Origin: Chrysomallon squamiferum | Taxonomy: Eukaryota; Animalia; Mollusca | Direction: 5' to 3' | Length of the DNA: 64,000 bases | Assembly (NCBI GenBank): GCA_012295275.1 | Contig: CM022673.1 | Coordinates: 6,448,001 to 6,512,000, forward strand | In this document: positions 10,101 to 13,100 of the stretch, piece after piece | Numbering within the stretch: position 1 is the stretch's first letter | Layout of the letters: each line of letters begins with the position of its first letter | Notes under the pieces: model-generated | What the model was told of the DNA's origin: nothing | What the model saw: only the letters and a program-made list of their open reading frames with translations | Databases searched by the model: none | Position numbers and translations under genes: made by a program

Positions 10101-13100
10101 TGGAATGTTTTTGTCTTATTATTGCTGTAGTCCATTAAGAATTTATCATTTCCTTCCTTTTTTTTTTTCCTTAAAATTTAATTTTTAATTTTTTTTTTTT
10201 TAATTTTTTTTTAAAATTAATTTTGCTTTCTTAAGCAGAAAATAAATGGAGAATATTTTTATGTTCAGTTTTGAAATGTTTAATGAAATTTTAAGAAAAT
10301 AAATACCATAAGAATGTTTATCCTGGTAATTATTACATATTCAGCAAATCAGAGGTTATTTGCATAGAAACAGAATCTTCAAAATATTAAACTTAAATAA
10401 CATTTGCTGGAGGTGAGGTTTTTTTGGAGGGGGTTTTGTTGGTTTTGTTATTTCTGGTTGCTTAGAAATAATAAATTTGAAAGAAGCTTTATTAAAAATC
10501 TATACAACAAAACAAAAATTATATACCATTACATTAACAATAAAGAAGTTGAATATATCTTTTTGCTTATTAAAAAAAATTATTAAAAAAAAAAAAAGAA
10601 AAAAAAAGAGGCTTTTTATAGTACTGATAGAGATTTTATAAATGTATTTATTTATTTTCAAGAAAAACAGAACCAAGAAAACAAACAACAAAAGGAAGCA
10701 CAACAGGCAGCCATTTTCTAATCAGATCTTCACCAAGACTCACATAACACCAGCTTCAAACAATGCCTGCTTGGACGCCATTAAGCAAACCACGCATTTC
10801 TTATTTATCAATTTCCTTCGCCAAGTAATCAGTTTGAAACATACAAGAGTTAGTAAGTCCAGGACTAACACTATTCAGAAAGTAGATCAGTACAAAGACA
10901 TAAAAGTCTTCATTACCAAGATGGGTGTTACCATCTGTTTTGATTTCTTGTTAGAAGCAGATAGTACCCTGACATTTTTACCAGACCTATCAAACCACTA
11001 CAACAATAAAAAAACCAGTTTCTGTTGTAACTCAGTTGTAGTGTGTGTGTTCCTTAGGAACAGGAGAATCTTTACTGATAAAGCAGACACTAAAAGTAGT
11101 CCAAAGGTTCAGTAAGTATGTTAGTTTGTTAAGCTAGATAATTCTGTCCAGACATCATCCCAAGTATGGGAAGATGCAAGAAGACCAAGATGAAGTTCTA
11201 ACAACATTTGGCTATTTAATGATCTATTGACACAGAAATCTACTATGGCTTAGTCAACAAAAAACAACTAAATATTACAACAATTCTAGGAAATCTACCT
11301 GTACTCCTCTTGACCAGCTGTGTCTAATATATCTAGAAGACATGTTTCACCATCTATCACAACCTGTTTTCTGTAGGAATCCTCTGAAAACAGAATATAT
11401 TATCAAGTTATAATTGAAAAAACCAAACAAAAAAACCCATCATGGCTACCTGTATTCTTCTTGACCAGCAGTATCTAGAATATCGAGAAGACATGTTTCA
11501 CCATCTATCACAACCTGTTTACGATAGGAATCCTCTGAAAAATTAAGTTGTAATAACAACAGTGACATAAATACATACATCAACGTTATTATAGTATTTA
11601 CAAAAAGCTAATACATTAAAAAAAAAAAAAAATTTTAAACATCTATTTTTTCAAAGGATTCAAGCTTCTGATAGTTTAAATGTTTGATATGTCACAACCT
11701 ATTTATTTTGAGTATTATTGAAATGTTTCAATGCAATCATTTGACTGTAAACAATGGCAGAAATCAGCAATTTTGATTACTGAATTAATGACTTCGTCAC
11801 AACTAAGGTATATGACCTGCTAATGAGTATGGTAAAATGACCCATTGATGACCATTGTCAATGATTTATTCATGGCCATTGGCAAACCCACATTTTGGGA
11901 GCCCTGAAGCTTGAACTGTTATGGGGGCCATTTGCAAGCTGCTTTTTTCTTCTACGGCAATATTCCAACTGACAGGTTTTAAAAATTTAGACACATCTCA
12001 GATTTTGATTAACATTTTTAAGAAATGTGGACTAAAATCACTTCTGGGGCCAGTCTGGGATTAGGGGCCTCAAGCTTCATTAGTTTCATAACAAGATCTG
12101 CTCCTGCTCGTGGCTGACCTGTTAATAAACAAGGTAAATGATCTGCTGATGACCACCACAACAGCTAGTTACTGACTAATACTGAGGACTTTACCACCAA
12201 GATAAATGTCATTCAACTAACTAATGTCATGGTTTAGTTCTACATTCAGCCACAGTGTTTAGAAAACAAAATTAAATTTAGAACAGGGCAAGTAATTTCA
12301 ATTAACTTCCACGGCAATTTCTTACGTCAAGAGTTTATACTCGGGGATATTTAAAATCTCTCAACACTAACAGAACTTACTTAGTTCAGATTTTAGCTCG
12401 ATTTTTGATCTACGAATATAAACACTGTGTTAGAAATCTCAACACAGCTGTGCATGTTGAGGCCATCATATCAGAAATTGTATCTTGCTTCAGACAATTA
12501 GCTACATTTATAATGAGATTCACCTCTGTGTGTACCTCCAAATTAGCTTCATTTGGTAGCATACAGATTATATGTTTCAAAGTAATGTGTGTTATTAATT
12601 TTTAATACTACAATGTTAAGTATTGATTTCGGTTCCAACTTCAGTGCAACTATAATGTACTTATTCTAATGAATATATCCCTAGCAACACCCTTGGGTTC
12701 GGACATTTTTTCCAGGAATCTTGGCTACTTCTGAGATTAAATAATTTAGTAGTTGAGCAGGAAAATAACTGGCTTATTGGTGTGTTTTGATCCTAGTCCC
12801 ACTAGAGGGTCTCACAGAGACCTTATCAAGTACCAAATGTCTGATAAGTTCAACTTACTCTTATTACTGTCACACTTATATTAACTACTTTCATATATAA
12901 AAAGATGAAGATAAAGACTTCTGAAGTTTAACAAGGTCCTGATTTTTTCAAACATTTTATATATTTTAACTCAGAGAGACAGCCATATAACCAGATCTTT
13001 TTTTATCATCATCATTATAATTATTATTATTTGTAGTAGTAGTAGAAGCAGCAGTAGTTGTGATGTTCTTTTGTTGTTGTTCTAGTAATACTAGTAGTAA

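Follow-up and report, generated by a model that had tools for sequence, protein, structure and literature searches.

Tandem exons that are spliced in an either-or fashion are usually explained by the differing proteins they yield, and a pair that encodes one peptide while its silent sites are saturated defies that explanation. The Ras gene of Chrysomallon squamiferum raises this question within the window analysed here, a 64,000-nucleotide stretch of genomic DNA: why should two copies of one exon be kept if both encode the same residues? As set out below, the Ras exon 4 pair is real, is likely to be ancient and mutually exclusive, and is unusual in being silent. The pair allows one to ask directly if control of splicing is enough to preserve duplicated exons, and if silent pairs serve as raw material for later protein switches.

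The Ras gene and its doubled exon

A complete Ras gene was found on the minus strand of the window, with eight exon positions and a doubled exon 4. Whether it is assembled with exon 4A or with exon 4B, the model encodes the same 187-aa protein with the CaaX box CILF. This protein carries the features of classical (H/K/N-like) Ras, namely the G1-G5 motifs, the Ras effector strand and a CaaX tail. It has 168-169 identities over 182-184 aligned residues to the Ras proteins of Haliotis, Patella and Mytilus, and its nearest named relatives are Ras proteins from abalone, limpet, mussel and annelids. The features of the gene are listed here in the order of transcription.

20870..20900, minus strand: Ras coding exon 1, residues 1-11
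16232..16280, minus strand: Ras exon 2, P-loop, residues 11-27
14083..14111, minus strand: Ras exon 3, a 29-nt micro-exon, residues 27-37
11450..11534, minus strand: Ras exon 4A, 85 nt, residues 37-65
11486..11520, minus strand: stretch of 35 nt in 4A (codons 42-53) with no difference from 4B; may stem from gene conversion
11384..11449, minus strand: spacer intron between 4A and 4B, 66 nt, U/G-rich, with predicted branch adenines
11299..11383, minus strand: Ras exon 4B, 85 nt, encodes the 4A peptide
11335..11369, minus strand: 35-nt tract of 4B, identical to 4A
9394..9496, minus strand: Ras exon 5, residues 65-99
9049..9088, minus strand: Ras exon 6, residues 100-113
8364..8524, minus strand: Ras exon 7, residues 113-166
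7110..7175, minus strand: last coding exon of Ras, with the polybasic tail, CaaX box and stop codon

No second copy of any other Ras exon occurs between window positions 5000 and 23000. Elsewhere, the window holds an ALDH3-like gene of about 12 exons (24880-32060, plus strand), named from the look of its translation and drawn on here for intron sizes and codon counts, and two exons of an LRP5/6-like gene (54106-60470, plus strand) that are 80-85% identical to Haliotis LRP6; one LRP6 exon has 85% identity to Haliotis and 70-74% to Lottia, Octopus, scallop and chiton. An apparent first coding exon of a further gene, with a GT donor at its end, lies downstream of Ras at about 2540-2368 (minus strand), and a tandem repeat with a unit of about 30 nt and repetitive open frames on both strands occupies about 51475-51980.

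The original prediction described twin Ras exons of 85 nt each that differ at 10 nt in 9 codons and encode the same peptide, and every one of these particulars, coordinates included, is exact. The splice signals it reported are likewise present, a TTTTCAG acceptor and a CAG/GTAG donor bordering 4A and 4B alike, and the intronic flanks are as diverged as it stated: they can be aligned at the splice sites only, the repeat ending 7 nt beyond the exon on the acceptor side and 4 nt beyond it on the donor side. A degenerate exon 4 pattern has two matches in the window, compared with none in 100 shuffles. The differences between the copies are clustered, with three at the 5' end, seven at the 3' end and none in the 35-nt middle. 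Equal length, same phase, homology, adjacency and canonical splice sites, the hallmarks of mutually exclusive homologous exons, are all found in 4A and 4B.

An assembly artefact, in which two alleles or paralogues were joined in tandem, is extremely improbable. The 35-nt shared tract does interrupt short-read contigs at both copies, but a single contig of another allele (11335-11515) runs continuously from 49 nt of 4B through the spacer into 66 nt of 4A. The earlier claim that the pair is no assembly repeat is thereby upheld. In addition, 4A and 4B diverge by 12%, at silent sites only, which far exceeds the allelic divergence of about 2.4% in introns, and their flanks are not duplicated. The contig comes from run X5, whose cover is DNA-like. 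In the allele carried by this run, all 16 listed substitutions are intronic, within 665 nt, and the 151 nt of exon are unchanged (binomial p 0.025, Fisher p 0.053). The X5 contigs end after 30 of the 35 shared bases, leaving the 5' end of 4A without a contig; this break at 11486-11520 may come from an allele-specific variant or from simplification of the graph.

Both copies bear a strong signature of constraint. Between 4A and 4B, 10 of 18.3 synonymous sites differ versus 0 of 66.7 non-synonymous sites (Fisher p=1.4e-8), giving a corrected dS of 0.8-1.0; outside the middle tract, the contrast is 10 of 11 versus 0 of 39 (p=1e-9). A copy dead since duplication would be expected to show ~21-24 amino-acid-changing differences, and 0 are observed, so the proposal of purifying selection on both copies stands. 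The unconstrained share of either copy's history is at most about a tenth. Synonymous sites have changed at 3 of 3 positions at the 5' end and 7 of 8 at the 3' end, and these saturated ends indicate that the duplication is likely old. The two copies are 10 nt apart, while their median distances to 37 distinct orthologous exons encoding the same peptide are 16 nt (A) and 15 nt (B). Chance survival of both acceptors at a dS of 0.8-1.0 has a probability of about 0.14-0.20 and would be excluded if the pair were common to cephalopods.

Probable either-or splicing, and codon usage

The gene model predicts that every departure from either-or splicing leads to an early stop. Joining 4A to 4B shifts the frame and brings a stop at codon 77, skipping both exons brings one at codon 39, and retention of the spacer brings one at codon 66. 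The 66-nt spacer is the shortest of the eight Ras introns, the others measuring 305-4589 nt, and is also shorter than all 10 measured introns (of 11) of the neighbouring ALDH3 gene, at about 339-874 nt. Candidate branch-point motifs are predicted at +42, +47 and +50 from the 4A donor, and the accessible text of two studies sets the threshold for steric exclusion at a donor-to-branch distance of about 50 nt (PMC5740500, PMC7969005). The short predicted donor-to-branch distance would block 4A-4B joining. Introns of about 69-71 nt are present in orthologous Ras genes (L009, L051), which means that the 66-nt spacer may be spliceable. RNA contigs over 10700-11608 number none in run X1, two in X2 and one in X3, all of them intronic; the contig filter may remove exon contigs, and the missing cover counts neither for nor against use of the copies. 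We infer the use of both copies from the selection signal on the peptide rather than from reads; the anatomy of the pair fits the use of 4A and 4B one at a time, which we consider likely in this species.

Other routes to exclusion found little to recommend them. Docking and selector pairing of the Dscam type is not supported, as the fold z-score is -1.5 and none of six duplex scans stands clearly above shuffles, 4-20 of 20 shuffles scoring as well; among the 25 matches listed, the inverted repeats around 4A and 4B are of low complexity only. Incompatibility of U2 and U12 splice sites is rejected by comparison with the U12 donor consensus, which the donors GTGAGT, GTAGCC and GTAGAT do not fit. 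The 4A and 4B donors are weak, and the 40 nt that follow them are the most U-rich of the eight donors (22 U each versus 12-20). Reading the weak GTAG donors as a regulatory mark is nevertheless ruled out, because most orthologous single exons also have non-consensus donors; the exon 4 borders and the weak donor are ancestral across orthologous loci.

These features bear on the idea of a dosage rheostat, in which splicing factors would steer transcripts to both-in, both-out or spacer-retained decaying forms and so tune the amount of Ras. The three early-stopping forms and the weak donors with their U-rich downstream sequence speak for such a device, and HRAS has a decay-linked alternative exon. 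A poison role, however, would not require two peptide-perfect copies, the weak donors are ancestral at this intron, and the both-in protein signature is absent from the 120 of 146 short Ras matches examined, which is a weak test. We regard the rheostat as unlikely.

A second RNA-level idea, that nine synonymous codon differences make the two messages unequal in protein yield or stability, goes back to the original prediction and finds no support in the comparison. The locally commoner codon is found in A at five positions and in B at four, and just 9 of 187 codons differ. The codon index of the exon is 0.74 for A and 0.71 for B, and the whole-gene ratio is 1.008 (a 0.8% difference), as measured against a small reference sample of 725 local codons which leaves out 3 of 13 neighbouring coding stretches because of a frame slip. 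In favour of a codon switch, A has five T-ending codons where B has none, and codon bias limits KRAS output, although in the available text of that study the KRAS/HRAS effect rests on whole coding sequences (PMC5472712). With scores this evenly balanced, a codon switch is very improbable and is the weakest of the readings. The pair would instead be a choice of splicing route, neither a protein switch nor a codon switch.

The same stretch of Ras in other animals

The age and history of the pair can be approached through the Ras proteins of other molluscs. In both Octopus bimaculoides and O. sinensis, RefSeq lists two Ras isoforms, X1 and X2 (P0452, P0453; accessions XP_014774293/XP_014774294 and XP_029633500/XP_029633501), both of 185 aa, whose differences are confined to residues 40 (Y/H), 48 (G/S) and 49 (D/E), all within the exon 4 stretch. 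The same two forms recur in transcript-derived proteins of another cephalopod-like species (P0455, from 15 contigs; P0456, from 4 contigs), which differ from Octopus Ras at five other sites. A-to-I editing is rejected as the origin of the Y/H and D/E differences, which are impossible by this route under the genetic code. The cephalopod switch includes Y40H, in the effector strand; in Rac1, Y40H is an effector-selective mutant, according to the portion of the source available (PMC4610213). The Ras model of Lottia gigantea (P0121) carries G48A, a position that also varies between the cephalopod forms.

A two-isoform switch at this very stretch suggests that the pair is likely old and perhaps was not always silent. 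On the strength of the protein-level match of the region, a common origin of the 4A/4B pair and the cephalopod isoform switch appears probable, and convergence of the two pairs is possible. The same Ras stretch is silent here and differs by three residues in cephalopods, so that one gene presents both states.

Metagenome loci give a different picture. A second copy of exon 4, sought with a pattern of the exon plus its borders, is present in 0 of 55 orthologous loci (41 distinct exon sequences), 24 of which span exon 3 to exon 5; the best off-site match to exon 4 in these loci is 42 of 85 nt. The exon 4 pattern has no match in prokaryote genome contigs. Absence from all 55 loci, together with the lack of exon contigs in RNA runs X1-X3 (where the filter may remove such contigs), is what would be expected if one copy were recently dead or unused, or if the duplication were lineage-restricted and unrelated to the cephalopod pair. 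Against this stand the bound of about a tenth on any dead period in a copy's history, the second allele, in which both exons are unchanged across 151 nt, and the cephalopod switch at the same stretch, and we judge such a history to be quite unlikely. The 4A/4B pair also differs from the recently dead duplicate of Ras exon 2 that locus L011 contains. That partial copy, at L011:8613-8700 and also seen in L017, has a near-identical upstream flank, the substitution K16N and no donor.

Annotated isoform names offer a hint of silent exon pairs beyond this lineage. In Lineus longissimus (four accessions), Mya arenaria and Mytilus californianus, Ras proteins of the same sequence are entered in RefSeq under differing isoform numbers (P0049, P0125, P0131). 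As a control, three vertebrate rows with at least two identical proteins carry one name, whereas a gorilla KRAS row has X1 and X2 on one sequence, which weakens the hint; LRP, taken as a second control, has no row with several identical RefSeq proteins. Two bivalve models show irregularities around exon 2. The Mytilus edulis model P0007 (CAG2225306.1), which sits between two accessions of the identical protein, has the first four exon 2 residues doubled, and the sole change in the Mya arenaria isoform P0022 (XP_052800717.1) is H27L, at the exon 2/3 junction codon. Together, these two models hint at tandem exon 2 copies in bivalves.

The pair could even be traced to a mollusc or wider lophotrochozoan ancestor. 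In snails, bivalves and ribbon worms it would then have kept to one peptide for ~500 million years, with both copies spliced under regulation as an RNA-level switch of Ras output, and cephalopods would later have built an effector-changing protein switch from it. Taken as a whole, this extended history is doubtful, though we give it some weight.

The middle of the exon allows an opposite history to be considered. None of its 7.3 synonymous sites differs, compared with 10 of 11 in the ends, and a run test for clustering gives p=0.025 unweighted and 0.017 weighted. The 35-nt identical tract is only modestly unusual in sequence terms, and the middle of the pair was probably homogenised by a conversion event. 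Because the tract covers codons 42-53, it takes in residues 48 and 49 and with them two of the three sites that vary between the cephalopod forms, and Lottia also departs at 48. A former protein switch may thus have been silenced, its 48/49 difference erased by conversion, leaving redundant copies that are both spliced and of which one is free to be lost. However, among 167 comparable orthologue pairs that differ at 8-12 positions, 6 also share a tract of at least 35 nt; both copies have Tyr at residue 40, within a saturated end, which means that no difference there was erased recently; and the isoform numbers hint at silent pairs elsewhere. A silenced switch is a rather unlikely account, but one to be taken seriously.

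The explanation that we favour, and to which we give about an even chance as a whole, is an old molluscan exon pair, used either-or, that yields the same Ras by each route and is kept by divided splicing control. Transcripts would take either 4A or 4B, each route giving the same 187-residue Ras, and the short spacer, with predicted branch points no more than 50 nt from the donor, would block joining of the two. Leak products would be removed by nonsense-mediated decay, since the 85-nt length is not divisible by three. The pair would be the same old duplication that yields two distinct Ras isoforms in cephalopods. Residues 37-65 of Ras comprise the effector strand, the G3 box, the start of switch II and Q61, and changes in them act dominantly. 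The peptides would be held identical because this stretch tolerates almost no change and an altered copy would be dominant, and conversion would have homogenised the middle 35 nt. Finally, splicing control would be divided, with 4A predominating in some cells or stages and 4B in others; both copies would be kept because, with control split in this way, loss of either would lower Ras output. We infer this reason for retention tentatively, and put it a little short of an even chance. As a practical consequence, wherever mollusc ras serves as a marker, two silent cDNA versions could pass for polymorphisms or for a second gene.

Comparison with known systems

The two G-protein forms RAB6A and RAB6A' arise from a tandem exon pair whose copies differ in amino acids. 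By the standard of RAB6A/RAB6A' or cephalopod Ras, 4A and 4B do not diversify the protein. The cephalopod isoforms X1 and X2 nevertheless resemble the pair in belonging to the same gene, in placing their differences within residues 37-65 and in having equal lengths; unlike the identical peptides of 4A and 4B, they are told apart by three residues, one of them the effector-strand change Y40H.

In the literature searched, supplements and most subscription papers aside, we found no account of duplicated mollusc Ras exons or of a peptide-identical exclusive pair, and a pair that combines an identical peptide with saturated silent sites is not described in the accessible portions of PMC5896119, PMC5740500, PMC8373072, PMC12156399, PMC7969005, PMC551531 and PMC4494069. 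Tandem-duplicated mutually exclusive exons, as presented in the available text of PMC5740500, PMC8373072 and PMC4494069, share with 4A and 4B their homology, equal length and phase, adjacency and frameshift on joint inclusion, and have the short donor-branch distance that is predicted here. In those accounts such exons serve protein variation, whereas 4A and 4B have no amino-acid difference. The closest case in these texts is that of the flip/flop exons, described as 'almost identical', while the 4A/4B peptide is fully identical.

Among GTPases, exon 4 of GNAQ/GNA11 and exon 5 of preGNAI (PMC5896119), as well as RAB37 (PMC8373072), also have a duplicated partner-binding segment that is used either-or. 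As far as the accessible text of these sources extends, they belong to other G-protein families, represent independent duplications and, unlike 4A and 4B, have copies that differ in amino acids. For the mechanism, the nearest parallel is OGDH exons 4a and 4b, where the available text attributes exclusion to branch points less than about 50 nt from the donor (PMC7969005), much as is predicted for the spacer here. The OGDH branch points were mapped and its exons are functionally different, whereas those of the Ras spacer are predictions, and 4A and 4B encode one peptide. The U-rich elements of OGDH and their regulation with TIA-1 and PUF60, as described in that text, provide a model for how the choice between 4A and 4B may be made.
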